This document shows, in pieces, positions 13,634 to 32,519 of a stretch of 64,000 nt of DNA. Positions within the stretch are counted from its first letter, which is position 1. Every line of letters starts with the position of its first letter. The notes below the pieces were generated by a model that was not told the DNA's origin, did no database searches, and saw only the letters and a program-made list of their open reading frames with translations. Location of the stretch: positions 32,001-96,000 of the IMG/VR virus record IMGVR_UViG_3300009503_000020; one strand, 5' to 3'. Source of the stretch: a virus. Made by a program: the position numbers and the translations under genes.

Positions 13634-15449
13634 GGAACTAATTACTAAGAAGAATTTCAACAAGATAGCTAAGAGATTAGAGGAACTGCAAGTACGCAGT
13701 TGGAAGATGTCTAGACCTATATTCCCTAAGATGACTCTATACTTCAAAGTATTTCCTATAGAATCATATTTCTCTACTGTAGGTCAGATCTGGTGGGTCA
13801 CACCTTACTGGAGAGGAGATGCTTTTGCTCTCTCTATTTTGTTCCATGAAGGACATCACTGGAACATCTATCCACTAGATATATTTAGAGCTATCAAAGA
13901 TATCTTTGAAGCTAGAAGACTTCTTGCTGAGGAGATAGGATTCGTACCTGAGAAAATCCAGAAGTCTCTTTGGAGAGTAGAAGAAGACTGGAGTCAGTTT
14001 GCATACTCTACAGCTGAACTTCAGTTCGTTGAAAATATTCTCGGAGATTACTGTCTTGAAGGAACGACAAAGATCCTACTCCCTGGTGGTGCAGAAAAAG
14101 AAATCAGAGAGATAAAAGAAGGAGATATAATCCTAGGAGTAAGAAATGGAAAAGTGGTACCTACTCGGGTCTTAGGGATTGGGAAAACTCTTCACACTGA
14201 AATAATTGAATTCAGAGATGGAAAACGCCATTTAGTCACCTCCCCTGAACATAAAATTTTTTCTTATCCAGACTTTCAACTTAAACTAGCAAAAGAGTTT
14301 AATAATGAGAGTGTTTACTATTACTTGGATGATAAACTTGGGCAAAAGAACCTGGACAGAAGAACAGATACAATTCCTGAAGGAAAATTATCCGAAGATG
14401 ACAGCAAAAGAAATAGCAGCAAGACTAGGAAAAACAGTTCACAGTGTTCAAGGCTATGTTTACCTTCACGTAGATACTCTCTCCAAGCGAGAACTCTCAA
14501 GAAAAAGATGCCACCAGATAGTCACTTCATTTACAGAAACGGAGAAAGCTTATATTGCTGGAATTGTCGATGGGGAAGGAACGATTACGATCGTGGGAAA
14601 GAAATATCGACAACCAATGATATCAATATCCAACACTTCTTTCCTTCTCAAAGAATATTTCGAACGACTTGGCTTTCAAACTCGAGTGAAGACAAATTGG
14701 GCAGGAACAGAATACTTCTCACTTTACATAACAGGGCAACACAATATCAGAGAATTCCTAGTTGCTATCAAAGATTACTTAGTAATCAAGAAGGAACATG
14801 CCCAACTCTTGCTGCAGTGGTTAGAACTGAAAGCTCAACAGAAGGTTCATGGCAAAGACACTCCTCAAATGGAGGAACTATTCAAACGCTTGAAACTTTT
14901 GAACTCAAGACATCCACATTTAAGGTTATCAGAAAGAAAAAAACTGATCCAGTAATTCTCTATGATCTAAAAACTTCAACCGGTTCATTCTTTGCTAACA
15001 GGATTCTAGTCCACAATTGTGTGAATTTACATATACATGACAACTATCCTCTAGTGTGGAATGATCTCTGGCATTTCCTCTCAGTTGAAGGTACATTTTA
15101 TGAGAAAGAGAAAGCACTCAAGAGAGACACTACTTTCCTGTTATACTTAGCAGTCTATCCAGAGCTAATTCCAGGTTTAGAACAGATACCAGTCAAAGAG
15201 AAAGTTTCTGAAGAGAAGATACCTAAGATAGCTCACATTGTTAAACTATGTAAAGAAGGAAGGATTTCTACTCCCTATGCTATTAAAGAGCTAGCTAAGT
15301 TATTCCATGACAATATCCAACAGGATCTCAAAGAAGCAGAAGGAGAAGGGAAAGAAGGAGATTTCAAATGCCCCAAATGCCACTCAGATGAAGGGTGGGA
15401 GATAGTCTCATACTTTGATGAACAGAAAGGAAAGTGGTTAGATGTCTGA
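13626..15449 (+). CDS. vWA-associated zincin metallopeptidase (DUF2201 N-terminal-like), intein-containing precursor; 285 aa after splicing
   Basis: LFHEGHH; the spliced junction restores N.LGDY-CVN, matching the N.A.D..IN motif; ends with CPKC. Confidence 0.75.
   Translation: MNKELITKKNFNKIAKRLEELQVRSWKMSRPIFPKMTLYFKVFPIESYFSTVGQIWWVTPYWRGDAFALSILFHEGHHWNIYPLDIFRAIKDIFEARRLLAEEIGFVPEKIQKSLWRVEEDWSQFAYSTAELQFVENILGDYCLEGTTKILLPGGAEKEIREIKEGDIILGVRNGKVVPTRVLGIGKTLHTEIIEFRDGKRHLVTSPEHKIFSYPDFQLKLAKEFNNESVYYYLDDKLGQKNLDRRTDTIPEGKLSEDDSKRNSSKTRKNSSQCSRLCLPSRRYSLQARTLKKKMPPDSHFIYRNGESLYCWNCRWGRNDYDRGKEISTTNDINIQHFFPSQRIFRTTWLSNSSEDKLGRNRILLTLHNRATQYQRIPSCYQRLLSNQEGTCPTLAAVVRTESSTEGSWQRHSSNGGTIQTLETFELKTSTFKVIRKKKTDPVILYDLKTSTGSFFANRILVHNCVNLHIHDNYPLVWNDLWHFLSVEGTFYEKEKALKRDTTFLLYLAVYPELIPGLEQIPVKEKVSEEKIPKIAHIVKLCKEGRISTPYAIKELAKLFHDNIQQDLKEAEGEGKEGDFKCPKCHSDEGWEIVSYFDEQKGKWLDV
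14052..15017 (+). mobile_element. Intein 1 (322 aa); Hint halves joined by an overprinted linker
   Basis: Block A CLEGTTKILL, block B LVTSPEHKIF, block F ILYDLKT, block G FFANRILVHN, +1 Cys. Confidence 0.93.
14305..14955 (+). CDS. Single-motif LAGLIDADG homing endonuclease with N-terminal HTH, in the +1 frame inside intein 1 (start 14305 or 14329)
   Basis: WTEEQIQFLKENY..MTAKEIAARLGKT HTH; AYIAGIVDGEGTI LAGLIDADG helix; ISISNT; YL.IKKEHA. Confidence 0.9.
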   Translation: MRVFTITWMINLGKRTWTEEQIQFLKENYPKMTAKEIAARLGKTVHSVQGYVYLHVDTLSKRELSRKRCHQIVTSFTETEKAYIAGIVDGEGTITIVGKKYRQPMISISNTSFLLKEYFERLGFQTRVKTNWAGTEYFSLYITGQHNIREFLVAIKDYLVIKKEHAQLLLQWLELKAQQKVHGKDTPQMEELFKRLKLLNSRHPHLRLSERKKLIQ

Positions 15450-15615
15450 AGAGTTTGAGTTCATTACTGAATGTCCCAAGTGTAAGCAGATAGTAACTGT
15501 AAGACGCATATTCTCTAAAGCAAAGTGTCCCTACTGTGGGTATAAGTTTGAACCAAAGATGCTAGCTGCAAGGAAAGCTTTCAACCCGTCTCTAAGGAGG
15601 AAAGAGAATGTCTAG
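15442..15615 (+). CDS. 57-aa Zn-ribbon protein (not in ORF track)
   Basis: Manual translation MSEEFEFITECPKCKQ...KCPYCGYKF...FNPSLRRKENV. Confidence 0.7.
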   Translation: MSEEFEFITECPKCKQIVTVRRIFSKAKCPYCGYKFEPKMLAARKAFNPSLRRKENV

Positions 15616-15844
15616 AACATCTCTGAAATGTCCTAAATGTGGCTATCCTTTAAAGCCTCAAATCAGAACTAGATTAGGAGATCCTTTTGAAGTACCATTC
15701 AGGTGTGAACATTGCAATACAACTTGGATATGGCACAGTTGGCAAGAATACTATGAGAGTTGTTTCTTTGAAGATCTAGTTAGATTTGTGACTAAGAATT
15801 TTAATCCATCAATAAAGGGGAGTACTTTAAAACATGAAAGTTAG
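15608..15844 (+). CDS. Zn-ribbon protein
   Basis: CPKC...CEHC; SD AGGAGG. Confidence 0.7.
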   Translation: MSRTSLKCPKCGYPLKPQIRTRLGDPFEVPFRCEHCNTTWIWHSWQEYYESCFFEDLVRFVTKNFNPSIKGSTLKHES

Positions 15845-16826
15845 AATAAAATGCAAGAACTGTGGTTACACTTGGGAAACTGATTTGCAACTTAGTCCAC
15901 TTGGGAGTCTTAAACCAGGCAAGAAAGGACCACTCTCAAGAATCAAGATAGACAAAGGCTCTCTAGATAAAATACTTGACATTGCTGCAGGAGCTTCTAG
16001 AGATGACCTAGAGAAATTAGGATTAGAGATAGACATAGAGGAATGGGAAGATGCTGTGGAGAGGCTAGCTCTTAGGAAATTCCTTCTTGAAAATTTAAGA
16101 GTATGTAGAGAAAAGAAACAGAAAACAGGAGAGAAGTATGTAGTAGGTACTGAACCGTTTGTTATGGGAGATAGTTTCAAGGATGTTGACATCCCGTCAA
16201 GTGAAGTGAAGAGTCTTGGTGTAGAAGACTTGAGAATGATACCAGGAGTTACTCTCCAAAAGAAGGTATATAGTATAACAAGAGGAAGAGATGAAGAAGA
16301 GCTAAAAGGTATTAAGTGCTTTGTGATTATAGATGGTAGTGGATCTATGATAACTGGGAAAGGACTCACATTCTCTGGAGGCAAGATAGGCAAAGCTCTC
16401 CTAATAGGGAAAGAGATCTATGAGATAACTAAGAAATTTGGATTTGATTATCAGCTTGCACTCTTCTCTGATGCAGGTGTGAGAGTGCCAAAGGAGAAAC
16501 TTAGAGAGTTCTGGGCTGATGCTAGTGAGAGAGCTAACTACAGGATATGGAATGGAGGTACAAGATTACAACGAGGCTTGGAACAGTTTACTGAGCAAGA
16601 ATACAGGGATGCTAACTTGATAGTTATCTCAGACATGGACTTAGGAGACTTCCAAGAAACTAAAGATGAGATCCTTAAGATATCTAAACTAACAAATAGC
16701 TTCAAGATAATTATAATAGAGACTCAAGACATAGACTTAGTTGAAAGAGAGAAGCAAGTGCGTGAGATATTTCCACCTGAAGCTCAATTGCAGATAATGG
16801 TAATACCTTTATCTGAAGGAAGTTAA
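15834..16826 (+). CDS. von Willebrand factor A (vWA) domain protein
   Basis: MIDAS IIDGSGS, NGGT, LIVISD; N-terminal CKNC. Confidence 0.85.
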   Translation: MKVRIKCKNCGYTWETDLQLSPLGSLKPGKKGPLSRIKIDKGSLDKILDIAAGASRDDLEKLGLEIDIEEWEDAVERLALRKFLLENLRVCREKKQKTGEKYVVGTEPFVMGDSFKDVDIPSSEVKSLGVEDLRMIPGVTLQKKVYSITRGRDEEELKGIKCFVIIDGSGSMITGKGLTFSGGKIGKALLIGKEIYEITKKFGFDYQLALFSDAGVRVPKEKLREFWADASERANYRIWNGGTRLQRGLEQFTEQEYRDANLIVISDMDLGDFQETKDEILKISKLTNSFKIIIIETQDIDLVEREKQVREIFPPEAQLQIMVIPLSEGS

Positions 16827-16861
16827 AAATAGGTCTAAATGGATAGGAAGTATGAGAGTAT

Positions 16862-17053
16862 ATGGCTAAGTTTAGAATGAAGAATGACTACTATGAAATT
16901 GTAATCAAGACAGGAACTGCCGAGAAACTAGAGATTGAAATTACTTTTAATGAGAAAGAAATAGCAGAACAGGAATTGAGAAATCTAGAGACATCTCTTC
17001 GTTTACTCTTGGAAGCATGCGGAAGATTTATCCCTAATCCCTCTAAAAGATGA
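16862..17053 (+). CDS. Small hypothetical protein
   Basis: ORF track; ends NPSKR. Confidence 0.55.
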   Translation: MAKFRMKNDYYEIVIKTGTAEKLEIEITFNEKEIAEQELRNLETSLRLLLEACGRFIPNPSKR

Positions 17054-17059
17054 TATGCC

Positions 17060-17512
17060 TTGTTCAGATATAGCTTTGTTAAGTTCTCTCCTTACTACAA
17101 GAAACATGTCATGGAATTCCTCTCTTCTCTAAGTCTAGAGACAAGGAGCAACTTATCTCTGTCTGGAGTCGATCCTCAGACAATATATCATTCATTTAAA
17201 GAAGACTGGAACACAACAACTCCTGTTATGTTATTTAGAGACAATCAAGTATTGGCTATTGGAAAACTGAGACCCTATGAGGATGGAGTTTACTTGTCCT
17301 GTTTGGTTGTTAGAGATGATTATCAGAATCAGCACTTAGGAACTAGACTAGTAAAGTATATGTTTGCCTTATCCCTTCTGAATGGTTTTAATACTATGTA
17401 CACTGAAGTCAAGAAGGATAACCTAAGAGCACTAGCCTTCTTCAAATCACTTCACTTCAAGAGAATTGTAGAGAAAGAGATGACCTATTTAATGAAGAGG
17501 GACCTGCAATGA
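17060..17512 (+). CDS. GNAT-family acetyltransferase
   Basis: LVVRDDYQNQHLGTRL acetyl-CoA motif; N.RALAFFKSL.F. Confidence 0.85.
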   Translation: MFRYSFVKFSPYYKKHVMEFLSSLSLETRSNLSLSGVDPQTIYHSFKEDWNTTTPVMLFRDNQVLAIGKLRPYEDGVYLSCLVVRDDYQNQHLGTRLVKYMFALSLLNGFNTMYTEVKKDNLRALAFFKSLHFKRIVEKEMTYLMKRDLQ

Positions 17513-17697
17513 GAATGAGAAAGGAGAGAGTAGAACAATTGCTAGAAGAAGTTGAAGAACGTCTTAAAGAAACTAGACAACGGCTCTTGCATTATAAGGA
17601 AGAGGTTGAACTCTTGACATGTGCTAAGGCTTATCTTGAGTTTATCCTGCATGGCTTAGAAAGTAATCCTTCAAAGAAGAGGGGTAAGAATGCATAA
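17509..17697 (+). CDS. Small coiled-coil protein
   Basis: ORF track; heptad-like Leu/Glu pattern. Confidence 0.55.
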   Translation: MRMRKERVEQLLEEVEERLKETRQRLLHYKEEVELLTCAKAYLEFILHGLESNPSKKRGKNA

Positions 17698-17923
17698 AGC
17701 ATTATGGGAATGGTTTGGCAGAAGGATACGGAGCAAAGAAGAAGTTCCTCCAGGAATGGATTTCTGTGATAGTTGTGGAAGGCTATTCCCTAAAGAAGAA
17801 ATGCATCATGTGTTGATACCTGGAGAAGGAGAAGTAATTATATGTGAAGAATGCAGTGACAAGCCACCATCATCATTAAGATTCTTCTATAGAAGGTGGA
17901 GAAAGAAGAATGCAGAAGAGTAA
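17690..17923 (+). CDS. Zn-finger protein
   Basis: CDSC...CEEC. Confidence 0.6.
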   Translation: MHKALWEWFGRRIRSKEEVPPGMDFCDSCGRLFPKEEMHHVLIPGEGEVIICEECSDKPPSSLRFFYRRWRKKNAEE

Positions 17924-18329
17924 AGTATTCTATATAGATGGGTCTAGTACAGGCTTGTATGGGTTTTATGATCCAGAGACAAACCAGATGAACATCTTTG
18001 AAGACTATCCATGCACTAACAACCAAGGTGAGTGGTTAGCTTTATATTCTCTTGTATTGACCTTGCCTGAGTATTGGAGTGGAGTTGTGTATTCTGACTC
18101 TCAACTTATAGTGAACCAGTTCAATGGAAACTACAAGATTAAGAACTTGGAATTGAAGAGAATACATGACTTAGTTAAGACAGTCTGTTCAGAGAAGAAT
18201 CTGAAGCTAGAACTGAAGTGGGTCCCAAGAGAACAGAACATAGCAGGGAAGAAAATAGAGAAGGAATTGGCACATAGGAAGGTAAAGGTTTGGGAACACG
18301 AACGCATTCAAGCTTTCAATAAAGACTAG
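17910..18329 (+). CDS. rnhA: Ribonuclease HI-like protein
   Basis: YIDGS, TNNQGE, YSDSQL, WVPREQN. Confidence 0.88.
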   Translation: MQKSKVFYIDGSSTGLYGFYDPETNQMNIFEDYPCTNNQGEWLALYSLVLTLPEYWSGVVYSDSQLIVNQFNGNYKIKNLELKRIHDLVKTVCSEKNLKLELKWVPREQNIAGKKIEKELAHRKVKVWEHERIQAFNKD

Positions 18330-18337
18330 GTGAAAAT

Positions 18338-19891
18338 ATGCAGACTTTAATTCATTCAGGAGTGTATTTACCAACATATAATCCAATAGGTCTGACAATC
18401 AAGTTCAAAGGAAAAGAGATAGAACTAGAGCCTGAAGCAGAGTGCATGGCAATTGCTTTTGCTAAGAAATTTGATACACCATACTTAAATGATAATGTGT
18501 TTGTTACCAACTTCCTTCTAGACTTCTCTACCAAGCTAGGAATAGAGAAAGAAGATGGTTGTTTAGACTTAAAGAACTATGACTTTGAAGCTATCAAAAA
18601 ATACTTAGAAGAGACAAAAGCTAAGACAGAGGGTATGACTAAAGAAGAGAAGAAATTAGCTACTACTTTAAAGAAACAACTAAGAGAGCAACTGAAAGAA
18701 AAATATGGATATGCCTTAGTAGATGGAGTGAAGACTCCTGTAATGAATTGGGCAGTTGAACCTCCCTCGATATTTATGAGCAAAGGAAAGAACCCTCTCA
18801 GAGGACACTGGAAGAGAGCAATACGCAAAGAAGAGATTATACTTAATTCCTCTCAACCAATGGAAGGTTGGAATACAGTCTGGGAACCTAATGAGTTGTG
18901 GATAGCTAAATGGAAGGATGTCTTTGACCCTACTCGTTGGAAGTATGTCTGGTTGTCACCTGCCTCTCAGCTTAGACAAGAAAGAGAAAAGAAGAAGTTT
19001 GAAAAGGCAGAGAACTTAGCTAAGAATATTAAGAAACTAGAAGTATTCATAGACAAAGAACTGAAGAGTCCAGATGTAACTAGGAGAAAGCTAGCTACTG
19101 TATGTTGGTTAATGAAGAATTTAGGTATTCGAGTCGGAGATGAACGTATCGCAGGAGAACGTGGCACACTTGGTTGTACTACTCTCAAGGCAGAGAATGT
19201 CAAACTAGGTAAAGATGGTACAGTTTATCTAGACTTCACAGGCAAAGATTATGTTCATTGGATGAAGTCTTTCAAGCCACCAGAACAAGTCTACAAGAAC
19301 TTACAAGAGTTCAAAGAAACAGCTAAGGATGACTTTCTCTTTAAAGGACTTGACTCCAACAAAGTTTCTCGCTTCCTCAGAGAAGTCTTGCCTGGGATGT
19401 CAGCTAAGGTCTTCAGAACTTATCTAGCAGGAACAGTGTGGGATGAGAATGCTAAGGAGCATCTCAAGCTAGTAGATGGAAGAACTTCACTCCCTGTTAG
19501 ACTTTACCTGTTTAAGATGACTAACTTAGCAGTAGCCAAAACATTAAACCATAGAAGAGCCTTACCAAAGAATTACCAAGAGAGAATTGCTAAGAAAGAA
19601 GAACAACTAAAGAAGGAAACAGCTAAGCTAGAATCCTTGAAAGAAGCTCCTGAGTCTAAACTACTAAAACAACAGAGGAAGGCAGAGAAAATAGCTTGTG
19701 AGTTAAATCTCTTGAAAGAGACAGCAGAGTGGAACCTGAACACTAGTCTGACTAGTTATATTTCCCCTAAGAAGACACTCTACTTCTGCAAGAAAGCTGG
19801 ACTTAAACCAGAACAGATATATTCCAAGAGTCTCCAAGAGAAGTTTAGTTGGATAATTAAGAGGGATGAGGACGATACAGAGGAGAGCTGA
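18338..19891 (+). CDS. top1: DNA topoisomerase IB, eukaryote/TACK-like large form
   Basis: Catalytic pentad motifs IRVG, FTGKD, AKVFRTY, LNH, TSLTSY; coiled-coil linker; N-terminal TLIHSGV. Confidence 0.93.
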   Translation: MQTLIHSGVYLPTYNPIGLTIKFKGKEIELEPEAECMAIAFAKKFDTPYLNDNVFVTNFLLDFSTKLGIEKEDGCLDLKNYDFEAIKKYLEETKAKTEGMTKEEKKLATTLKKQLREQLKEKYGYALVDGVKTPVMNWAVEPPSIFMSKGKNPLRGHWKRAIRKEEIILNSSQPMEGWNTVWEPNELWIAKWKDVFDPTRWKYVWLSPASQLRQEREKKKFEKAENLAKNIKKLEVFIDKELKSPDVTRRKLATVCWLMKNLGIRVGDERIAGERGTLGCTTLKAENVKLGKDGTVYLDFTGKDYVHWMKSFKPPEQVYKNLQEFKETAKDDFLFKGLDSNKVSRFLREVLPGMSAKVFRTYLAGTVWDENAKEHLKLVDGRTSLPVRLYLFKMTNLAVAKTLNHRRALPKNYQERIAKKEEQLKKETAKLESLKEAPESKLLKQQRKAEKIACELNLLKETAEWNLNTSLTSYISPKKTLYFCKKAGLKPEQIYSKSLQEKFSWIIKRDEDDTEES

Positions 19892-20213
19892 AGAATTCTA
19901 CAAAGGACTTAAAGAAGGTACTTGGTATTGTTTCCTATCTTACAGAGGAGAACTTGTTTGGTCTAATGATGAGAACAAGGTATGGTGCTCATTACTTAAC
20001 GATACCAAGTTTGATAGCAAATGGAAGTGGAATGCAGAGGAATCTCTTTGGGAAATAACTCTTGTGCCTAATAAGTCCTGTTATGTAGATGAGATAAGAG
20101 TCGAAGTATTAACTAAGAATGGGCTAATCTATGAAAGAACTATTTCCTTTGCTCCAATTTATATTGACAAAGGTGATGACTTCATCTGTCAAATTAAATT
20201 TGAAGGGTGGTAG
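19866..20213 (+). CDS. Hypothetical protein
   Basis: ORF track. Confidence 0.55.
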   Translation: MRTIQRRAEEFYKGLKEGTWYCFLSYRGELVWSNDENKVWCSLLNDTKFDSKWKWNAEESLWEITLVPNKSCYVDEIRVEVLTKNGLIYERTISFAPIYIDKGDDFICQIKFEGW

Positions 20214-20482
20214 TTTTGAAGACTTGTATTCTTTGCAATGCACCAATAGAAGACGGACAAACCTTATGTGAGAAGTGCTTACATAGAACTCTAGAAGCAT
20301 TAGAGAAAGAAGGAGGAGAATTAGTGCATAAACTAAAAGGTAGAGCTAAGAGTGATTTAACTAAACTAATCCAAGAAATATGCAAACATTGTCCTTACTT
20401 TCACAAAGACATCTCAGACCCTGCTTGCTCAACTTGCACTTACAAAGAAAAAGAGAAGCTTATACGAGCTTTCTTGGAGTAG
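20207..20482 (+). CDS. Cys-rich Zn-binding protein
   Basis: CILC, CEKC, CKHC, CSTC. Confidence 0.6.
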   Translation: MVVLKTCILCNAPIEDGQTLCEKCLHRTLEALEKEGGELVHKLKGRAKSDLTKLIQEICKHCPYFHKDISDPACSTCTYKEKEKLIRAFLE

Positions 20483-20487
20483 TAGAG

Positions 20488-20742
20488 ATGCATAAACACA
20501 AGGTATCTGAAACTCGTATTCGAAGCCTTTTGAAGACTGTATCTGCTAGGTTATTGGAAATACTTATAGACACTCTTCTTTTAGGGGTAATTTACTCTCT
20601 TCTAGGGATATCTAGACCCTATGAAATAGCTTTTAGTTTGTCAGTAGTTATAGAATGCTTGTGTGCTCTTGCTACTTATATCAATGAGAGGTTGTGGAAT
20701 AAAGTTCAATGGGGTAGGGAAGTAAGAGATGTCAGCAGCTGA
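20488..20742 (+). CDS. DUF2061-like small membrane protein
   Basis: ET..RS..KT.S.R ... YINERLWNKVQWG pattern. Confidence 0.7.
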   Translation: MHKHKVSETRIRSLLKTVSARLLEILIDTLLLGVIYSLLGISRPYEIAFSLSVVIECLCALATYINERLWNKVQWGREVRDVSS

Positions 20743-21076
20743 TTCTTGTAAGAATTCTCTATACTTTCAAAACCATAAGAGATTATTGAAGTGCCCTTTC
20801 TGCGGGTATAAGATGTCATGGTATGTGATATTTGCTTATGATACTACTTTAAAATACTGGTATTGTACAAAGTGTGGCTGTCAAGTCCCTGACAAGGAAA
20901 GATACTCCAAAAGTGAGTTATCTGCTATTAGGAAAAGGTATAAAGCTTCTTTAAAGGAAGACATTGAGAAGCTAGAAAAACAACTAGAGAAGAGACGAGA
21001 AGCACTCTCTCTTTGGGGTAAGTTTATGTCAGAGAAGAAGAAGGTTGAACTTCTTGCAGAAGAACTCCAGACTTAG
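20729..21076 (+). CDS. Zn-ribbon plus coiled-coil protein
   Basis: CPFC...CTKC. Confidence 0.6.
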   Translation: MSAADSCKNSLYFQNHKRLLKCPFCGYKMSWYVIFAYDTTLKYWYCTKCGCQVPDKERYSKSELSAIRKRYKASLKEDIEKLEKQLEKRREALSLWGKFMSEKKKVELLAEELQT

Positions 21077-21425
21077 AATAATGTTCTACAAAGATCACAG
21101 GTTTCCTGTTGTCTCATATCTAGATGAAGAGAAATGGAAAGCTGGAGTGTTTTATTTTCATGATATTCCTATGTGGTTGTACTTCTGGAATTGTTTACAA
21201 GACTTTGAGAGCTGGGCTGATGACAAGTGTGTTGTCTTTTACTTACCTCAAGAAGCTTCAGAAGGAATTCAATTGCTGTTTGAATTCTTAGAGAAGAGGA
21301 AGGAAGCTCACCTTACTCCCGAATTGTTTAGTCTAATTAAAGACAAGAAATGGGATGAGCTAGCTGATACCTTGGCTGTACGTAAACTAGCTAAGAGGAT
21401 AGATGTGGAAAATGAAGAAAGTTAA
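21045..21425 (+). CDS. Hypothetical protein
   Basis: ORF track; the start may be internal (MFYKDH). Confidence 0.55.
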   Translation: MNFLQKNSRLRIMFYKDHRFPVVSYLDEEKWKAGVFYFHDIPMWLYFWNCLQDFESWADDKCVVFYLPQEASEGIQLLFEFLEKRKEAHLTPELFSLIKDKKWDELADTLAVRKLAKRIDVENEES

Positions 21426-21996: not shown

Positions 21997-22032
21997 AAAA
22001 GGCCATGAGTCAAATAATAAGGAGGGACAGAA

Positions 22033-22287
22033 GTGATAATTGAAGCTGTGGGATATCTTGGTATGGGACTAGTGTTAGCTACACTTTATCTAAGCAGAAA
22101 GCATTTCCTGGAATCACAAGTGTGCAGTCTAATAGGAGGAGTTTGTTTAACAGCTAATGCAACTCTCATTGGTCCACCTGCAAATCCCTTTCAGATACTC
22201 AATGGTATTTGGACTATCATAAGCATTTTCAATATCTACAAGACACTGAGGGAGAGAAATGTCAAAGCAAGAAAGAAAATGTCCTAG
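22033..22287 (+). CDS. Small three-TM membrane protein (CBU_0592-like)
   Basis: GYLG..LVL, IGG..L..NA, ILNGIW..IS. Confidence 0.6.
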   Translation: MIIEAVGYLGMGLVLATLYLSRKHFLESQVCSLIGGVCLTANATLIGPPANPFQILNGIWTIISIFNIYKTLRERNVKARKKMS

Positions 22288-24201: not shown

Positions 24202-24210
24202 AGTTTATAT
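24201..24210 (+). promoter_or_regulatory. Putative TATA box
   Basis: AAGTTTATAT about 25-30 nt before the next start; SD GGAGTGAGG. Confidence 0.55.
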
Positions 24211-24230
24211 TTCCTAGTAAGATAAAAGGA

Positions 24231-25229: not shown

Positions 25230-25486
25230 TAATCAGATCTGAAGGATATATCAAGATACCTATCCTTTATAGGCACGAATTCTCTAAGAATGTGAAGATC
25301 TTATTTGATCCAGAACAGAATCTTCTAGCCTTGCAACCATCTAATGACTTAGGTGATTATCCTATTACAAGATGGAGAATCTTCTGCACACAGTTCCTAA
25401 GAACCTACAAGATCTCCTCTCAAGAAATAGAAACCGTATGGGATAGAAAGAACAAGTACTTAATAGCAAGAGTAAAACGAGGCTAG
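25190..25486 (+). CDS. Possible AbrB/swapped-hairpin DNA-binding protein
   Basis: GYIKIP...LFDPEQNLLALQP pattern; weak. Confidence 0.4.
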   Translation: MPFREIKRGAGKLVIRSEGYIKIPILYRHEFSKNVKILFDPEQNLLALQPSNDLGDYPITRWRIFCTQFLRTYKISSQEIETVWDRKNKYLIARVKRG

Positions 25487-25497
25487 GAAGTGTAGAC

Positions 25498-25755
25498 ATG
25501 GAACCTTTAGAACTTGTGTTCAATCTAATAAATGTAGGATTCATAGGTAGTTTTGCTATCTATAGAACATATGTCAATTATAAGTCTCTGAAAGTGCAAC
25601 AGGTAATGCTAGAAGAATCAAGAGACTATTGGAACAGTTGGAAAGAGAGAAGCAAGGATGTAGCTAGGAAGGTATTAGAGGAGATCTCTACTGAAGATTT
25701 GAAAGCAGAACTTAGAAAAAGGCAAAGAGTGAGAAAGATAAAGAGGAGAAGTTGA
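25498..25755 (+). CDS. Single-TM coiled-coil protein
   Basis: N-terminal hydrophobic helix. Confidence 0.55.
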   Translation: MEPLELVFNLINVGFIGSFAIYRTYVNYKSLKVQQVMLEESRDYWNSWKERSKDVARKVLEEISTEDLKAELRKRQRVRKIKRRS

Positions 25756-25756
25756 A

Positions 25757-26230
25757 ATGTCTGAGCAGAAAAGAGTACCCAAATATGAAATTCTTAGGCA
25801 GATGAGGAAAAGGAAAAGAAGAGTGAAAATACAGTGTCCTATCTGTAAGGTAGAAATGAAGAGGAAAGGAAAGAAAGGAAGAGATGAGTATTTCAAGTGT
25901 CCTAAATGTAAAGGGAAACTGTTTAGCAATGGTATCTTTAAACAAGCTGTACCAAAAGATTCTCTAGACATTAGAAATTATCAGTTGAAGGAAGAGAGGA
26001 AAGAAATAGCTCTTAGGAAGTTAATTAGGAGACTTAAGAAAGAAAAATACTTAGGATATCACACCTTCCAGTGGGAAGGAAAGATAATAGACTTAAATGA
26101 CTATGATGTGGATGGTATCTCTTTTGCAGAGAAGAAGGAGGCAGAAGAAGCTAGGAAGAAACAAGAAGAGGAACTAAAGCAAAAGCAAGAACAAGAACAG
26201 AAAGAGGAAGGAAAACAGAATGTGTCGTAA
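25757..26230 (+). CDS. Basic Zn-ribbon protein
   Basis: CPIC...CPKC. Confidence 0.6.
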   Translation: MSEQKRVPKYEILRQMRKRKRRVKIQCPICKVEMKRKGKKGRDEYFKCPKCKGKLFSNGIFKQAVPKDSLDIRNYQLKEERKEIALRKLIRRLKKEKYLGYHTFQWEGKIIDLNDYDVDGISFAEKKEAEEARKKQEEELKQKQEQEQKEEGKQNVS

Positions 26231-26633
26231 CTGTGCATTTGCAATAGGAGACTCACCAAGCAACAGTGAAGAGTGCTCTATTTGTCTACGAAATCCAAAG
26301 ATAATCTCTCAAAAATTTGAACCTAAGATATACAATGAAGAGCAGATAGATAGACCAATTGATATGTATGTCTCAAAGGAGTTCTGGAGAATACTTCAAT
26401 CAGTAATCCTAAAAAGAATAACAAAAGCACTCTCTCAAAGAGATAAGGAAGTCATTCCTTGGTTCCCTTGGTATCCAACAACTTGGAATGACAACACTTG
26501 GAGCTTCCACCTAGTAGAAGAGGATCCTGTAAACTATGAGGTTAAAATCTCTACTCCTATTCCAATAGAGAAAAAGAACAGGAGAAGGAAAGGAAGGAAG
26601 AATGAAACTAAACAAGTCCCCATTCACAGTTAA
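26220..26633 (+). CDS. Cys-containing hypothetical protein
   Basis: CRNC...CSIC. Confidence 0.55.
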   Translation: MCRNCAFAIGDSPSNSEECSICLRNPKIISQKFEPKIYNEEQIDRPIDMYVSKEFWRILQSVILKRITKALSQRDKEVIPWFPWYPTTWNDNTWSFHLVEEDPVNYEVKISTPIPIEKKNRRRKGRKNETKQVPIHS

Positions 26634-27795
26634 GTTCTTTAAACAAGCATATGATACTTACAGAGAACCAGGATTGTTCTGGGCAACTCTAACTCTATTC
26701 TCTTCTTGTTTTGTAGTTACCAATGACAAGTGGTTGTTAATGAAGTTTGGTTCCTCAGGTGTAGGAAAGACAATAAGTGATAGAGTAGCAATAGAGTGTT
26801 TTGGTAGTAGATTAAACCCACTAGTTATCTCAGGAAGACTAACTCCTGCAGGGATGGCTAAGGTAATGAAGAAAGCAGAGAAGAGTCCAGAGGCTAAGAA
26901 TAACTTGGAAAGGTTCAGACAAGCTAAACTGATATTTGTAGAAGACCTTAGCAGGTGCACTACTCACTACTTGAAACTAGCATCTCTACAGTTCTTAGCA
27001 GGTTTAACTAAGACTACATCTTTAGATGACCTCACTTCTGAAGGAGGAACATTTGGAGGAGACTTAGGACCTGAACCAAAGAAGAGCATGGTAGCTGGAA
27101 CTCCTTCAGACTGGGAAGAGATAGCATCTACTTCACTATACAATGAATTCATAGACAGGAGATCATTAACTGGAATCTCTCTCATGTCACCTAGAGAGTG
27201 GCAAGCAAGAGAGCAGCTAGCAAAGCAACAGAAACTGCTGAAGGAAGACTGGCAGATTATCCTAAGCTGGAAAGATATGATAAGAAGTGTGGATGTTCAG
27301 ACTTACTATGGTCCAATGAAACTCCCAGAACATGGTTCTCACAGGCTATTACTGTATGAGAAGCTCTCTGCCTTCAAACGCTTTCCTGAGAATGTTCTCC
27401 TAATGATAGATTCTCTTGCTGAAGGACATGCTAGACTTAACAGTAGAGATCAGGTTATACCAGAGGATTATGAAGTAATCAACAAGCTATTCTCTAGACT
27501 ATTAACAATAGCAGATATGAAGAAGAAGGAGTTGTTTATAGTAGAGGAGTTGGTTAGATCTCATGGCATGCTTGCCCTCGAAGAACTTTGTTACAGGCTA
27601 CGCAAGAGAGCTAGGAACGAAGATCTACCAGACTTGATGATAGTAGAAAAGACAATAAGTAACTATGCTAATGCTTCTAAATATCTGAATAAGACAAGAG
27701 CATGTAAGAACAAACCAGCTTACATACTGCTATCACAAGCATTGAGAGATCTCTTCAATAATTGGGACAAGGAAGTTAAGGAGATGCTTAGATAA
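26602..27795 (+). CDS. AAA+ ATPase, MCM-like core, candidate replicative helicase
   Basis: Walker A GSSGVGKT, SGRLTPAG, Walker B IFVED, SMVAGTP, IDRR; probable C-terminal wHTH. Confidence 0.6.
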   Translation: MKLNKSPFTVKFFKQAYDTYREPGLFWATLTLFSSCFVVTNDKWLLMKFGSSGVGKTISDRVAIECFGSRLNPLVISGRLTPAGMAKVMKKAEKSPEAKNNLERFRQAKLIFVEDLSRCTTHYLKLASLQFLAGLTKTTSLDDLTSEGGTFGGDLGPEPKKSMVAGTPSDWEEIASTSLYNEFIDRRSLTGISLMSPREWQAREQLAKQQKLLKEDWQIILSWKDMIRSVDVQTYYGPMKLPEHGSHRLLLYEKLSAFKRFPENVLLMIDSLAEGHARLNSRDQVIPEDYEVINKLFSRLLTIADMKKKELFIVEELVRSHGMLALEELCYRLRKRARNEDLPDLMIVEKTISNYANASKYLNKTRACKNKPAYILLSQALRDLFNNWDKEVKEMLR

Positions 27796-27986
27796 TGTTG
27801 TCTAGAATTAAACATGCAATTGATATTAAGGACTGGACTAAGGAAGAGATAGCAAATAAACTGCAAGAGATTGTTCTAAAAGAACAAGGTCTAACATGGA
27901 TAAGAGTAGAACCGCTTCTCATTGAGTATGAAACTGTCCTAGATCAACCTCTAAAGTTTAATCCAAGTTTGAGGCATTCAAAATGA
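27795..27986 (+). CDS. Small hypothetical protein
   Basis: ORF track; ends FNPSLRHSK. Confidence 0.55.
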   Translation: MLSRIKHAIDIKDWTKEEIANKLQEIVLKEQGLTWIRVEPLLIEYETVLDQPLKFNPSLRHSK

Positions 27987-28681
27987 AAGAAGCTATTGTT
28001 CTTGCTGGTGGTAAAGGCTTAAGACTTAAAGGACAGATAGATGTACCTAAGCCTTTCTTGATAGTGCATCCAGAAACTGGAGAGACACTTTTAGAAGCAC
28101 AGTTGAAGTGGTTAACTGCATATGACTTTGAACATGTCATTGTAGCTATTTCAAGAGAGAACTTCAAGTTCATGAGAGTAAACTATGCTAAACTCTTGAA
28201 TATACCTTGGTTGGATACTTCTATAGAAGAAGAACAACTGGGTACAGGAGGAGGACTCAAGAAAGCTTTAGACTTAGTTGAAGAGCCTGATTTCTATTGT
28301 ATGAATTTAGATGATGTGTGTTTCTTTGACCCCACTGAGTTGTTTAATGCACAGAAAGGATTAAATGCTATCTTAATCCAACAAGCTAAACTACCATTTG
28401 GAGCAGTGCAGGTAGGGGAAGATATGAAGGTAATAGACTTCATAGAGAAACCTCTTATTGATAAGTTTGTATCTTGTGGTCACTATGCTTTCAATAGAAA
28501 ACAGATAGAACCTTATTTGCCAGATGAGGGAGACTTGGAAATGACTCTCCTCAAAGCCTTAGCGAAGAATAATCTCCTATATGCACATATCTTGAAAGGA
28601 AAGTGGATAACAATTAATACATATAAAGAGCTACTTGAAGCAAGAGGGATTATGAATGAGTCAAGAGAAGAGCAAGACTGA
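27983..28681 (+). CDS. Sugar-phosphate nucleotidyltransferase (NTP_transferase family)
   Basis: AIVLAGGKGLRL, PKP, LGTGG, DFIEKP. Confidence 0.9.
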   Translation: MKEAIVLAGGKGLRLKGQIDVPKPFLIVHPETGETLLEAQLKWLTAYDFEHVIVAISRENFKFMRVNYAKLLNIPWLDTSIEEEQLGTGGGLKKALDLVEEPDFYCMNLDDVCFFDPTELFNAQKGLNAILIQQAKLPFGAVQVGEDMKVIDFIEKPLIDKFVSCGHYAFNRKQIEPYLPDEGDLEMTLLKALAKNNLLYAHILKGKWITINTYKELLEARGIMNESREEQD

Positions 28682-28892
28682 ACCTGAAAGTCTAAAGAAT
28701 CCGTCTTTTAAAGTGACTAAAGAAGAGTCTGTGGAGAGAGAGAAATTAGAAGAATTGAGGCTTTACCTTAATCACCTTAGGCGAGAGAATGAAGACATTA
28801 GAGAGCAGTGGCACAGATACTATTCAAGAGCTTGCCTGGTCTTCTTCATAACAGGAATTCTGATAGGGTTTATTGTAGGGATGCTACTGTGA
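28656..28892 (+). CDS. Small C-terminally anchored membrane protein
   Basis: C-terminal TM helix. Confidence 0.55.
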   Translation: MSQEKSKTEPESLKNPSFKVTKEESVEREKLEELRLYLNHLRRENEDIREQWHRYYSRACLVFFITGILIGFIVGMLL

Positions 28893-29131
28893 TAGACCAC
28901 CTAAGTGAAGAATTGAATTGGATTAAAGAGAACATAAAAGGAGTGCTGAAGTATCCATATTTCTTTACAGGAGATACTCTAGTAATTTCTTCAGAAGACG
29001 TTCCTAGAGTGGAAAGACGTTTAAAGGAACGGATCTGGATAGACCGAAATGGGCAAAGGAGATTATGGTTCCACAAGATAATCATATATCACTCTCAGGA
29101 GGAATATGCATGGTTGAGAATACTGAAATAG
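28889..29131 (+). CDS. Hypothetical protein
   Basis: Within track ORF 28808-29131; GTGA coupling at 28889. Confidence 0.45.
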   Translation: MIDHLSEELNWIKENIKGVLKYPYFFTGDTLVISSEDVPRVERRLKERIWIDRNGQRRLWFHKIIIYHSQEEYAWLRILK

Positions 29132-29478
29132 AAGAACTAGCTGCTGAATTGAGAAAGCATTTCAAGAGTGGACATCCTGACTTCTACACTCTACTAATTA
29201 AGATGGCAGAAATACACAACATAAAGAATAAAGGATATGGTTTAGGAGACCCTCTTGGTAATTTTCTAGAATCAGAACGCTTTGGAGTGGAAGCTTGGAA
29301 AGGTTGCTTGGTTAGGCTCTCAGACAAGTGGAGTAGACTGTGCAATTTGGCTTCTAAACTAGAAGACCCAGAATATCAGGATGCAATCAAACTAGAGAAT
29401 CTAGAGGATACTCTTATAGACTTAGCTAACTATTCTCTCTTGTGTATAATTTTACTTAGGAGGAGATCCAAGGAATGA
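29110..29478 (+). CDS. DUF1599-like nucleotide-modification-associated alpha-helical protein
   Basis: KNKGYG...GNF, VRLSDKWSRL, EDTLIDLANY. Confidence 0.75.
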   Translation: MVENTEIEELAAELRKHFKSGHPDFYTLLIKMAEIHNIKNKGYGLGDPLGNFLESERFGVEAWKGCLVRLSDKWSRLCNLASKLEDPEYQDAIKLENLEDTLIDLANYSLLCIILLRRRSKE

Positions 29479-29618
29479 GATGCCCCAAGTGCATGTCAAC
29501 AGACATAGACCAATGCCCTACTTGTAGGAAAGGATTAAAGAAATGTAAGAACTGTGGCTTTGTAGCTGAACAGAAGTACTTTGAAGGAGAACCACTCCCA
29601 TCTGAAAGGAAGGAATAG
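29475..29618 (+). CDS. 47-aa Zn-ribbon microprotein (not in ORF track)
   Basis: Manual translation MRCPKCMSTDIDQCPTCRKGLKKCKNCGF... Confidence 0.6.
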   Translation: MRCPKCMSTDIDQCPTCRKGLKKCKNCGFVAEQKYFEGEPLPSERKE

Positions 29619-29619
29619 C

Positions 29620-29916
29620 ATGGATCTGCAAGAATATATAAAAAAATGTGGAGAGGCTGCCAACAAGAAAGGGTGGCTAGTTACCTGGGACATGTATCCT
29701 CCATATCTTTTAGCAACTATAGATGAACTGACAGACTCCTTTGAATCTGGGTGGAGAGATGACAACAAGGAGAAAGCCTTTGAAGAACTAGGAGATGCTC
29801 TTGTGAGGCTATTTCATATTATACATGATTTAGATATTCCAATTGAAGACATACTTAGAAAGATAATGCAAGAAAATGAAACAAGACCATATCTCCACAA
29901 TCACAAGAGGATTTAA
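29620..29916 (+). CDS. MazG-like NTP pyrophosphohydrolase
   Basis: IDELTD...EELGD.L.R.F..I..LDI.IE..L..I...NETR. Confidence 0.75.
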   Translation: MDLQEYIKKCGEAANKKGWLVTWDMYPPYLLATIDELTDSFESGWRDDNKEKAFEELGDALVRLFHIIHDLDIPIEDILRKIMQENETRPYLHNHKRI

Positions 29917-29920
29917 ATAG
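29911..29920 (+). promoter_or_regulatory. Putative TATA box (ATTTAAATAG)
   Basis: Identical 10-mer at 32514; about 38 nt before the next start. Confidence 0.5.
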
Positions 29921-29957
29921 AAGAGAAGCCTACAGTAAGAGCTGCAAAGGGACCAAC

Positions 29958-30209
29958 ATGGATCATCTAGTTGAGAGATATATGGATGAAGAGACTATTC
30001 GTGTGTTCTGTTTCTTTCTAAAGAATAAATTCAATCCTAAAGATAAAGTCTGTGAAGGCTGTGCACGTTATGCATTGTGTAGCAATGATGCCTTCAAGAT
30101 GCTTTCTTTTCTAGGATATATACCTTGGCTAGAAAAAGACAACAACGAAATTTCAACATTAATTGAGAAGATGTATGGTCATCAAAGATGCAAACAGTGT
30201 CTGATATGA
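29958..30209 (+). CDS. Cys-containing hypothetical protein
   Basis: ORF track. Confidence 0.5.
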   Translation: MDHLVERYMDEETIRVFCFFLKNKFNPKDKVCEGCARYALCSNDAFKMLSFLGYIPWLEKDNNEISTLIEKMYGHQRCKQCLI

Positions 30210-30385
30210 AACCTCAATGTAATGCTTGTCTCAAATTTATAGACATATCAGAGTATCTTGAGAATGGTGGTTACTGTAAAGAATGCTCTAAGGAAGTAGA
30301 TAGAATCTACAAGGAAGAAGGAAGTAATGGAGTCAGAAGATACATTATCAGAAAAAGAAAAGAAGCTATGCAAGAACAACTTTGA
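30206..30385 (+). CDS. Small Zn-finger protein
   Basis: CNAC...CKEC. Confidence 0.55.
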   Translation: MKPQCNACLKFIDISEYLENGGYCKECSKEVDRIYKEEGSNGVRRYIIRKRKEAMQEQL

Positions 30386-30542
30386 GTGCTTTGGAGAATA
30401 TGGTACTAGATTAGATTGCAAAGAATGTCCTCAGAGCCTAGCATGCAGAAACTTTTCTCACAGTTTACAAGAAGGCTTATATCTCCGAAACAAGACCAAA
30501 TACAAAGGAAGAGGGAAGACTAGAAGAAAAGATAAGTATTAG
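30327..30542 (+). CDS. Small Cys-cluster protein
   Basis: CF..YG...DCKECPQ..AC. Confidence 0.5.
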   Translation: MESEDTLSEKEKKLCKNNFECFGEYGTRLDCKECPQSLACRNFSHSLQEGLYLRNKTKYKGRGKTRRKDKY

Positions 30543-30545
30543 AGG

Positions 30546-32519
30546 ATGGAAGCTTTGCAGGTATTAAGCAAGAAAGAGATTATGGAATTAAAGAAGAAAA
30601 TAGAACCTATAAAGAAACTAGCTCTGCATGACGATGCAGATGGTGTAACTTCTGCAGTACTTATGTCTTATGTGTTTAAGATAAACAAAGTATGGGCTCC
30701 AGATGACTTTGGAGAGTGGCCTGTTGCTCCTTATAAAGTTCAAGGGCAAGAACAACTAGAGCTTCCACCAGATGTTTGTGTGGATATGGTACCAGCTAAT
30801 CCTGAATGGGTTGGTTTAGCAATAGACCACCATCCAAATCACCCTCCTGAAGGAAAGAGAAGTTACCAGCTTATCTATGGAGAAGCACCTGCTTCTGTTA
30901 TTGTCTATACTCTCTTTAAAGAATTAATTCCACAAGAACATAGATGGAAAGTAGTAGTTGGCTGCCTGTCCAAGGACACGGAAATACTTACTCCAAGTGG
31001 GCAAATTGAAATCAAAGATCTTAATACTTTGGATTCTGGAATAGGTCTAGATGAACATGGAAAGCTTTGTAAAAATTTACTGTTTACAATACCTAAAGGA
31101 CGGAAAGAACTGCTGCGAATCACTACCAGAAAGAGAGAGATATTAGTAACTCCTGAGCATAGGCTGTTTACACAAAGAGGTCTTGTTGAAGCAAAGGACT
31201 TAAATATTGGAGACTACTTGGTGGTATACTTGAGGAGTTTAGATGACTTCTCAAAGAAAGTTAGAAGCAAACAGGAAGAATTTAGAGAAAGCACGCCAAG
31301 TCTTAAAACTATTAAGCGGAAATCCCAGCTGGAAGAGCTGGTGGCTTGGGAGAGTGAAAGCATCAATTACAGAAGAGAAAAGACAGAAGCTCAGAGAAGC
31401 AGCTATGAAGAATGGAACAAGAGAACGAATTCTTCTTCACAATCTCAGTCATCGAGAGACGAGAATGTGCCCAATATGTGGGAAAGAGTTTACGGTAAAG
31501 AAATCTTCAAGAAAGAAATATTGCTCAATGAGATGCTCAGGCAAAGCAAACTTGAAGAACCTTGGCAAATATACAGGTTCACACAGTGGGCGAGAAAACC
31601 CAAATTGGAAAGGTGGAACTTCAGCCAAGCCATATCATTGGGAAATGAAGAAAAAAGAATGGAGAAACCTTTTGTATCAGAAGGTCGGGTACAAATGTCA
31701 ACTTTGTGGCAACAAAGGCAAACTCAACATTCATCACATAAACAGAGACAAGATGGATGGAAGGCCAGAGAATTTGCTTATACTCTGCCCAAGTTGTCAT
31801 TTAAAAGTTCACAAATTGGTTTGGAAAGGATTGAAAGCATAGACTATGAGGGCAGAGAAGAAGTATTTGACATACACTGGGCCTCTACCAACAATTTCTT
31901 CTTAGCTAATGGAATTCTTTCCCACAATTGCGTTGGAGACGGACAACCAGAACTTATACCTCCAGAGATATGGAGAGAATTTCCTATCTTACTGGAAGAG
32001 TCTGTTACTCCAAGAGAGAGATATGGAAAGCTAGAGACTTCTAATTATCCTCTGTATTTAAGATTAAGTTCAGGCATCAATGCAGTATGTAAGATACCTG
32101 AGAAATGGTACGTAGGATATGCTATATTACGCAATGCAAAGTCACCTTGGGATCTAATCAATGATTCCTCTCTTAAGTCTGCTAAAGAACTTGTTGAGAG
32201 TGAAAGAGAAAGGATCTACAGGGAGACAAGTCCCATACAACTCAGAAATGGAATAAGAGTCTGGGCGTTCCAGTCTGAGACCAAGATAGAGAGAACTCTA
32301 GCTTGGGAAATGTGGGATACTGACAAACGCACTATTGTAGCTATAAACTCTGCTACTGGAAGAGGTAGCATAAGAGGTACATTAGCTACTTTAGTGTATG
32401 AGCATTTGACTGCTCATGGTTTCAAGGCAAGTGGACATCCAGGGTTTGGAGGTTTAAAACTTAAACCTGACCAGACTTGGGAGGATGTGTACCACTGTCT
32501 TGCAAATCTAAAGATTTAA
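30546..32519 (+). CDS. DHH-family phosphoesterase (RecJ/GAN-like), intein-containing precursor; 335 aa after splicing
   Basis: HDDADG, VD, IDHH; spliced motif VVG-CVGD; DHHA1-like GSIRG and GHPGFGG. Confidence 0.85.
   Translation: MEALQVLSKKEIMELKKKIEPIKKLALHDDADGVTSAVLMSYVFKINKVWAPDDFGEWPVAPYKVQGQEQLELPPDVCVDMVPANPEWVGLAIDHHPNHPPEGKRSYQLIYGEAPASVIVYTLFKELIPQEHRWKVVVGCLSKDTEILTPSGQIEIKDLNTLDSGIGLDEHGKLCKNLLFTIPKGRKELLRITTRKREILVTPEHRLFTQRGLVEAKDLNIGDYLVVYLRSLDDFSKKVRSKQEEFRESTPSLKTIKRKSQLEELVAWESESINYRREKTEAQRSSYEEWNKRTNSSSQSQSSRDENVPNMWERVYGKEIFKKEILLNEMLRQSKLEEPWQIYRFTQWARKPKLERWNFSQAISLGNEEKRMEKPFVSEGRVQMSTLWQQRQTQHSSHKQRQDGWKAREFAYTLPKLSFKSSQIGLERIESIDYEGREEVFDIHWASTNNFFLANGILSHNCVGDGQPELIPPEIWREFPILLEESVTPRERYGKLETSNYPLYLRLSSGINAVCKIPEKWYVGYAILRNAKSPWDLINDSSLKSAKELVESERERIYRETSPIQLRNGIRVWAFQSETKIERTLAWEMWDTDKRTIVAINSATGRGSIRGTLATLVYEHLTAHGFKASGHPGFGGLKLKPDQTWEDVYHCLANLKI
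30963..31928 (+). mobile_element. Intein 2 (322 aa); Hint halves joined by an overprinted linker
   Basis: Block A CLSKDTEILT, block B ILVTPEHRLFT, block F EEVFDI, block G FFLANGILSHN, +1 Cys. Confidence 0.95.
31243..31842 (+). CDS. HNH homing endonuclease with Zn finger, in the +1 frame inside intein 2
   Basis: SD GAGGAG before ATG; CPICGKEF..KYCSMRC; NPNWKGG; CQLCG..LNIHHINRD..D...NLLILCPSCH..VH. Confidence 0.92.
   Translation: MTSQRKLEANRKNLEKARQVLKLLSGNPSWKSWWLGRVKASITEEKRQKLREAAMKNGTRERILLHNLSHRETRMCPICGKEFTVKKSSRKKYCSMRCSGKANLKNLGKYTGSHSGRENPNWKGGTSAKPYHWEMKKKEWRNLLYQKVGYKCQLCGNKGKLNIHHINRDKMDGRPENLLILCPSCHLKVHKLVWKGLKA

Follow-up and report, generated by a model that had tools for sequence, protein, structure and literature searches.

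The locus considered here raises the question of how one virus can carry two inteins whose homing endonucleases are encoded outside the intein reading frame, and whether such elements were formed within that virus lineage. The stretch analyzed (the window, 64 kb) comprises bases 32001-96000 of the 120,717-bp IMG/VR record IMGVR_UViG_3300009503_000020 (G000). Two of its genes are each interrupted by an intein; very probably both inteins are 'non-canonical', the host frame encoding two Hint halves and a stop-free spacer, and the homing endonuclease being a separate gene overprinted in the +1 frame. The original prediction described this anatomy and read it as a general route in this lineage, by which free-standing nuclease genes land in mini-inteins; the anatomy is largely upheld below, and the origin is revised. 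The features concerned are listed with positions counted in the window (nt, nucleotides; aa, amino acids; HTH, helix-turn-helix; AF2, AlphaFold2; ORF, open reading frame).

13626 to 15449, plus strand: ORF of host gene 1, 607 aa with the intein and 285 aa without it
14052 to 15017, plus strand: intein 1, 966 nt and 322 aa, from Cys1 to His-Asn, followed by Cys+1
14340 to 14888, plus strand: host-frame loop of intein 1, residues 97-279, structureless in AF2, an open-frame spacer
14305 to 14955, plus strand: nested gene 1, +1 frame, 651 nt and 216 aa, predicted HTH and LAGLIDADG
30546 to 32519, plus strand: ORF of host gene 2, 657 aa with the intein and ~334 aa without it, DHH-like phosphoesterase
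30963 to 31928, plus strand: intein 2, 966 nt and 322 aa, from Cys1 to His-Asn, followed by Cys+1
31239 to 31799, plus strand: host-frame loop of intein 2, residues ~93-279, low AF2 confidence
31232 to 31242, plus strand: start signal of nested gene 2, with a GAGGAG Shine-Dalgarno sequence at 31232-31237 and TAG at 31240-31242
31243 to 31842, plus strand: nested gene 2, +1 frame, 600 nt and 199 aa, predicted zinc finger and HNH

Both inteins start with Cys1, end in His-Asn, are followed by a C-extein starting Cys-Val, and contain a nested ORF offset by 1 nt; in these respects, and in the 966-nt / 322-aa size, the elements are just as first described, as they are in occupying different host genes and in carrying nucleases of different superfamilies. 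Their DNA shows no similarity beyond the last ~40 nt. Cys1, His-Asn, and Cys+1, which the two share, are general features of inteins. The block-B motif is SPEH or TPEH in the two inteins, and an alignment of 11 inteins shows no variation at Cys1, the block-B His, or the terminal Asn. The Pfam Intein_splicing model matches intein 2 at 59-60 bits, over its cut-off; intein 1 reaches 21-23 bits, under the cut-off of 35.8. AF2 run on the 11-sequence alignment gives intein 1 a predicted local distance difference test score (pLDDT) above 90 at residues 1-96 and 280-322, and below 50, with no secondary structure, at residues 97-279; the model of intein 2 is confident at residues 1-92 and 280-322 and of low confidence elsewhere. 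For the residues of intein 1 modeled with confidence, the top Foldseek matches are Hedgehog, BIL, and intein structures (E ~2e-5). By these models both elements are class-1-type inteins, predicted to splice, with Hint-N and Hint-C halves around a loop, and the host-frame loop is modeled as a spacer with no domain; a Pfam search of the intein 2 host frame found no in-frame nuclease family and no recognizable domain in the loop. The nucleases had been said to fill the loop between the Hint halves exactly, which is true only approximately: measured against the AF2 boundaries, nested ORF 1 overlaps Hint-N by ~35 nt (~12 codons) and Hint-C by ~67 nt (~22 codons), and nested ORF 2 starts 4 nt inside the loop and overlaps Hint-C by ~43 nt (~14 codons).

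Nested ORF 1 starts 253 nt into intein 1 and encodes an N-terminal HTH followed by a single-motif, I-CreI-like LAGLIDADG domain. The protein, classed with Pfam and PHROGs as an HTH plus LAGLIDADG nuclease, matches Pfam LAGLIDADG_3 at 24.4 bits (cut-off 22.5), and a profile of it and two homologues matches I-CreI/I-MsoI structures at E=3.7e-14 to 4e-8, its motif AGIVDGEG being aligned onto AGFVDGDG of I-CreI; it is predicted to be an I-CreI-like LAGLIDADG homing endonuclease. Nested ORF 2 starts 280 nt into intein 2 and encodes a zinc finger, an NPNWKGG motif, and an HNH domain with the pattern CxxC...HH...N...CxxCH; this protein matches Pfam HNH at 25.7 bits (cut-off 21.4) and phrog_1271 at E=5e-23, had no match in a sequence search of the PDB, and is predicted to be an HNH (beta-beta-alpha-Me) endonuclease.

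The coexistence of the two frames can be judged against chance. Each nuclease was redrawn synonymously (5000 redraws), with codons either drawn from genome usage or permuted among its own; the redraws carried a mean of 9-17 host-frame stops, and for neither nuclease was any of the 5000 stop-free. The real host frame has 0 stops over the nucleases, and the third frame has 21 in intein 1 and 14 in intein 2. As no synonymous redraw is stop-free, selection keeps the host frame open over a recognizable enzyme gene in the +1 frame. The constraint on the two frames was compared among distant homologues, with no formal dN/dS test: the loop of intein 1 (W1) against that of L009, an intein described below, scores 158 in the nuclease frame (null 32+/-5) and 49 in the host frame (null 33+/-6), and the 16 best-scoring nuclease pairs are 28-54% identical in the nuclease frame and 15-37% in the host frame. 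Substitutions in the same 16 pairs peak at nuclease codon position 3; in most of these pairs the position with the fewest is nuclease position 2 (host position 3). Since the nuclease frame exceeds the host frame in both identity and score, protein-level constraint acts on the nuclease frame and not on the loop peptide.

Both elements can also be compared with alleles that lack them. A related 156-kb virus, IMGVR_UViG_3300031999_007842 (G001), has syntenic intein-less orthologues of both host genes, 61-75% identical, and an intein search across it detected none. Closer still are contigs of run X3, a sediment metagenome; these are mostly 95-99% identical to the window, have ~100x depth, and bridge both sites. 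The empty alleles are the following.

L002:3001-3858 in G001: intein-less orthologue of host gene 1, 285 aa, syntenic
136971 to 137957 in G001: intein-less orthologue of host gene 2, ~334 aa
14050 to 15033: X3 joint at intein 1, 16 letters between the joined positions, net exactly -966 nt
30961 to 31935: X3 joint at intein 2, 7 letters between the joined positions, net exactly -966 nt

At the gene 1 junction (marked by a slash) the X3 empty allele reads DY/LVNTW and the predicted spliced product of G000 reads DY/CVNLH; at the gene 2 junction the corresponding sequences are VVG/AV and VVG/CV. Because the X3 empty alleles have Leu or Ala at the position, Cys+1 arrives with the intein, and the Val at +2 is part of each native gene. 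The allele differences in gene 1 cluster in the five codons adjoining the insertion point, which fits co-conversion or a change of target site. The inteins are present in runs X1 and X2, which come from two studies of hot springs, and the contigs of these runs are gapless across them. Both elements are therefore polymorphic, either present or precisely absent, among near-identical strains; gain in the G000 strain is the more parsimonious history because the more distant G001 also lacks both inteins, and the polymorphism argues for recent mobility.

Two further observations concern intein sequence whose assignment to this virus was not possible. In X3, the bins covering the inteins have a depth of 3-6x. 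In run X4, also from sediment, the summed contig depth is 7.4 over window positions 14137-14773 and ~1 on the flanks; an X4 contig follows the window as far as 14300, shortly before nested ORF 1 starts, and diverges beyond that point, and it may represent a Hint-N half or a nuclease in another context or with a different loop.

The lineage question was addressed by relatives elsewhere. A search of 5.8 billion proteins found no close homologue of the intein-bearing host proteins, a tblastn search of a phages collection with host protein 1 gave no match, and neither did a viral-contig scan with host protein 2. The lone weak match to host protein 1 among the 5.8 billion led to a glycosyltransferase-like gene (L009) with an intein of 328 aa that ends FANRILVHN/C, as does intein 1; the +1 ORF in its loop encodes an HTH-LAGLIDADG homologue of nested protein 1 (31% identity, E=7e-15). 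A full HMMER search of 1.84 billion representatives with intein 2 returned distant matches only, the best at 88 bits, about a dozen of which gave one continuous alignment over all 322 residues; in 15 such single-stretch relatives that were checked, Pfam detected no in-frame nuclease. When the DNA of 10 relatives was examined (in MCM, AAA ATPase, terminase large-subunit, and other genes), every one of the 10 had a +1 nuclease ORF in the loop, 2 of LAGLIDADG and 8 of HNH type. Together with L009, the nested LAGLIDADG homologues are found in L051 and L054, and the HNH homologues in L050, L052, L053, and L055-L059; the nuclease ORF is intact in 10 of these 11 inteins, that of L059 being broken by an internal stop. 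The 11 tabulated elements have 0 host-frame stops each and 14-35 third-frame stops. With the two window inteins, the frame is +1 in 13 of 13 cases, which fall into two homologous nuclease groups; the regularity of frame that had been suspected from two cases is thus not random. The overprinted layout as a trait of this viral lineage does not survive the same comparison, as G001 and the X3 strain lack inteins and distant inteins share the layout.

Some of these relatives display features of their own. In L059 (829-1794, a terminase gene from Logan SRR18595300) the HNH ORF is split into 829-1338 and 1339-1794 and the host frame is open, which looks like a decaying nuclease in an intein still obliged to splice. 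In the terminase inteins L053:1605-2501 and L056:1815-2690 the HNH ORF extends 7-10 nt into the C-extein, the nuclease gene covering all of Hint-C and the splice junction. A census of in-frame nucleases by motif and hidden Markov model (187 Hint pairs, 150 best representatives) misclassified one verified overprinted case and was dropped.

The mechanism proposed for such elements begins with Hint halves encoded in the host frame and joined by a spacer of ~185 residues, of which nothing but stop-free reading would be needed. The host protein would be translated through this spacer, after which the Hint halves would fold and splice the intein out; the nuclease would be made by internal initiation, which is well supported for the HNH gene and more weakly for the LAGLIDADG gene. 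Cleavage of an empty allele by the nuclease would then lead to copying of the whole 966-nt element. Each element would derive from an old composite lineage of wide distribution (LAGLIDADG-type for intein 1, HNH-type for intein 2), and both were probably acquired ready-made.

A reason for the constant frame may lie in the genetic code. In an exhaustive codon-pair check with the nuclease in the +1 frame, no dipeptide forces a host-frame stop, and every T/AA, T/AG, and T/GA (the slash marking a codon boundary) is removable through a third-position change. With the nuclease in the remaining same-strand frame, a Met that precedes Ile, Met, Thr, Asn, or Lys unavoidably creates TGA, and such dipeptides occur 1-6 times per nuclease. 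No stop is forced in the codon-aligned antisense frame either, in keeping with published antisense cases. The +1 frame would accordingly be the only same-strand arrangement in which all host-frame stops can be removed synonymously, which would explain its constancy. It is tentatively proposed that the code channels same-strand overprinted nucleases into +1 and that this virus population is a natural system in which homing can be measured, a combined reading considered possible rather than probable; if true, the +1 rule predicts where hidden nuclease genes are located in 'decayed' or 'mini' inteins.

Several points weigh against these readings. Splicing, translation of the nested ORFs, and cleavage are all predicted steps. 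Nested ORF 1 has a weak Shine-Dalgarno sequence, AAGAG, and its start is uncertain between 14305 and 14329. The relatives were chosen by single-stretch alignment to a 322-aa query and are biased to similar length and loop type, so that neither their length range nor the count of 13 of 13 is an unbiased census; the 13 cases are also not independent, as the nucleases are homologous and the frame may have been inherited within two lineages. The Hint tree, with branches of 1-3 changes/site, is too poorly resolved to speak for co-descent of Hint and nuclease: nuclease type requires 2 changes on it, and 1 suffices in 26% of bootstrap trees. Furthermore, a published out-of-frame case, an endonuclease VII-like 'frame 3' enzyme, appears to use the other frame (10.1101/2025.01.02.630785).

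The rival explanation that survives best, itself judged unlikely, is that the nuclease is made as a Hint-N fusion by programmed ribosomal frameshifting or, in a weaker version, that the nested ORFs are no longer expressed. The weak start signal of ORF 1 favors it, as do the five sense codons that lie between the upstream +1-frame stop and the ORF 1 ATG, and the broken nuclease ORF of L059 attests that decay does occur. At ORF 2 the evidence points the other way: starts in G000 are purine/G-rich at -8 to -14, with GAGG there in 40 of 122 ORFs, and ORF 2 has GAGGAG 5 nt before the ATG at 31243 and a +1-frame TAG directly before it. Its start thus matches the usual G000 context, with no room for an upstream frameshift fusion. 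Both nuclease ORFs in the window are intact and retain their catalytic motifs, and the recent mobility suggested by the presence/absence polymorphism also speaks against this rival.

Quite improbable is the proposal that the overprinted inteins were created in this virus lineage, local free-standing nucleases having landed in resident mini-inteins. It draws on a free-standing HTH-LAGLIDADG relative of nested protein 1 in G001 (179 aa, 37% identity, L006:1288-1827) and on the resemblance of the nested proteins to free-standing phage nucleases, the nested HNH protein resembling free-standing phage HNH/NUMOD proteins. Against it, no intein or mini-intein is detectable in G001, the near-identical X3 strain has clean empty sites and no mini-inteins, and a search of G000 found no free-standing paralogue of either nuclease. 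Because distant inteins in other genes combine homologous nucleases with the same +1 layout, it is most likely that both composite elements reached G000 ready-made and were not formed there. Of the route first suggested, the resemblance to free-standing nucleases stands; its restriction to this lineage, or to G000 itself, does not. Invasion of mini-inteins by free-standing nucleases, a model with which the resemblance agrees, has already been proposed (10.1101/2025.01.02.630785; 10.64898/2026.09.14.751524; PMC2677866).

The free-standing gene L006:1288-1827 sits in G001 between a small zinc-ribbon-like ORF and a 365-aa ORF. A set of 40 viral-contig LAGLIDADG relatives of the free-standing type (L010-L049) was also inspected: 0 of 40 are nested in a same-strand frame, and in ~12 of 40 the antisense frame is open across the whole match. 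Two of these antisense ORFs are long, for example L021:1376-2989 and L040:1631-3007 (minus strand), at 538 and 459 aa, and have no Pfam match; they may represent antisense-nuclease insertions in host genes, or a by-product of codon usage.

The equal length of the two inteins had been left between chance and a size constraint, and chance is the better reading. That the size is truly constrained, for instance because splicing requires a certain loop length, or that the two inteins have a recent common origin, is regarded as very improbable: it would accord with the two AF2 models, in which Hint-C starts at about residue 280 and Hint-N ends at 92-96, and with the fairly narrow band of 314-341 aa in which the related overprinted inteins fall, a band whose narrowness is due in part to the way in which relatives were chosen. 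The 11 inteins measure 322, 322, 328, 324, 326, 314, 327, 338, 341, 336, and 327 aa; 2 of the 55 pairs are tied, the other tie being the unrelated terminase/AAA pair L053 and L057, and the probability of a tie is ~0.034 from the spread of the nine relatives (standard deviation 8.2 aa). The internal layouts of the two window inteins differ, with ORFs of 651 and 600 nt at offsets of 253 and 280, and their best local DNA alignment scores 17, where the shuffle maximum is 18. As the relatives vary in length, the layouts differ, and the DNA is unalike, the equal 322 aa are best read as a coincidence and carry no meaning. Finally, the notion that in-frame nucleases were shifted by paired indel errors of assembly or sequencing has a negligible probability: metagenome assemblies can contain indels, with nothing specific to this window, and it is opposed by the independent X1 and X2 contigs that agree with the window without gaps, by a host frame free of stops where 9-17 are expected, and by the same layout at 11 independent loci from other samples.

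The architecture of an out-of-frame intein nuclease, as argued for here, has already been published in preprints of 2025-2026, and a same-strand +1 HNH gene in an intein is a variation on the same theme. The closest known system is the cyanobacterial DnaX intein, in which a LAGLIDADG nuclease lies in an overlapping ORF under frame-specific selection (Phillips, DeSimone and Gogarten, 10.64898/2026.09.14.751524); its out-of-frame nuclease goes back to Gorbalenya 1998, as cited in that study. Like the elements in G000, the DnaX intein has Hint halves in the host frame, a low-confidence loop, an overlapping same-strand LAGLIDADG ORF (in DnaX with its own Shine-Dalgarno sequence), purifying selection on the nuclease frame, and coexisting intein-free and intein-bearing alleles; unlike it, the elements here are viral and lie in genes unrelated to the bacterial chromosome gene dnaX, the LAGLIDADG enzyme is a single-motif I-CreI-like protein with an N-terminal HTH, and a second element carries an HNH enzyme. 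In actinobacteriophage inteins (Gosselin, Arsenault and Gogarten, 10.1101/2025.01.02.630785) the nucleases reported are in-frame HNH, antisense LAGLIDADG, antisense Vsr-like, and 'frame 3' endonuclease VII-like; the study proposes that free-standing nucleases invade the intein and gives evidence for continued transfer. The likeness is a nuclease in a separate frame or strand, over an in-frame region without a recognizable fold; the same-strand +1 HNH and +1 I-CreI-like LAGLIDADG are absent from that list, and the viruses here come from hot springs and sediment. Fractured genes (Dassa et al. 2009, PMC2677866) share the evolutionary model and a free-standing-type nuclease gene between Hint halves; they consist of two ORFs that are trans-spliced, whereas here the host frame is open through the nuclease and splicing is predicted to be in cis. 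The ShiLan 'hidden HNH' of phage methylase genes (Arsenault et al. 2025, PMC11855218) is likewise an out-of-frame HNH in a host-open insertion; it has no Hint domain and is not spliced out, unlike the nucleases here, which are flanked by complete Hint halves.

The contribution of this window is the clean natural presence/absence polymorphism of two such elements in one virus, together with the code-based rationale for their frame. From such loci gene callers return nothing but the long host ORF, and neither nested nuclease came up in the protein searches; inteins of this kind are therefore easily mistaken for decayed inteins or mini-inteins. The occurrence of two unrelated out-of-frame nucleases in one virus, alongside empty alleles in a near-identical strain, shows the composite elements to be mobile units, and the natural X3 empty-site sequences could serve as cleavage substrates. 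The regularity of frame and its genetic-code reason provide a simple prediction that a census can check. Within the whole 120.7-kb G000, the two intein nucleases are the only nested same-strand ORFs of at least 200 aa; a single other nested ORF of at least 100 aa is present, of 104 aa on the minus strand.

G000 has direct terminal repeats and a G+C content of ~38%, and its genes include those for a DNA polymerase of family B, an RNA ligase, and a topoisomerase IB of eukaryote type; a tRNA search within the 64-kb window found none. The public runs with matching sequence are hot-spring and sediment metagenomes, with no RNA data set listed among them, and an archaeal host is plausible. The topoisomerase IB (window 18338-19891) is full eukaryote-type, with N-terminal, core, and C-terminal domains; its nearest Atlas clusters are from Nucleocytoviricota, Nitrososphaerota, and eukaryotes, which is a possible lead on host affiliation. 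The product of host gene 2 has a weak match to Pfam DHH. That of host gene 1 contains an HExxH-like motif and a C-terminal zinc ribbon; Pfam and NCBIfam returned no function match, and an Atlas search gave weak DUF2201_N/CobT-like leads only. Two genes upstream of host gene 1 is an AAA-lid (MoxR/chelatase-like) ATPase (window 11584-13143), and at L054:1001-4325 a DUF2201 gene comes after an AAA ATPase gene whose intein is a related one of LAGLIDADG type; host gene 1 may encode a metallopeptidase-like partner in an AAA ATPase module.

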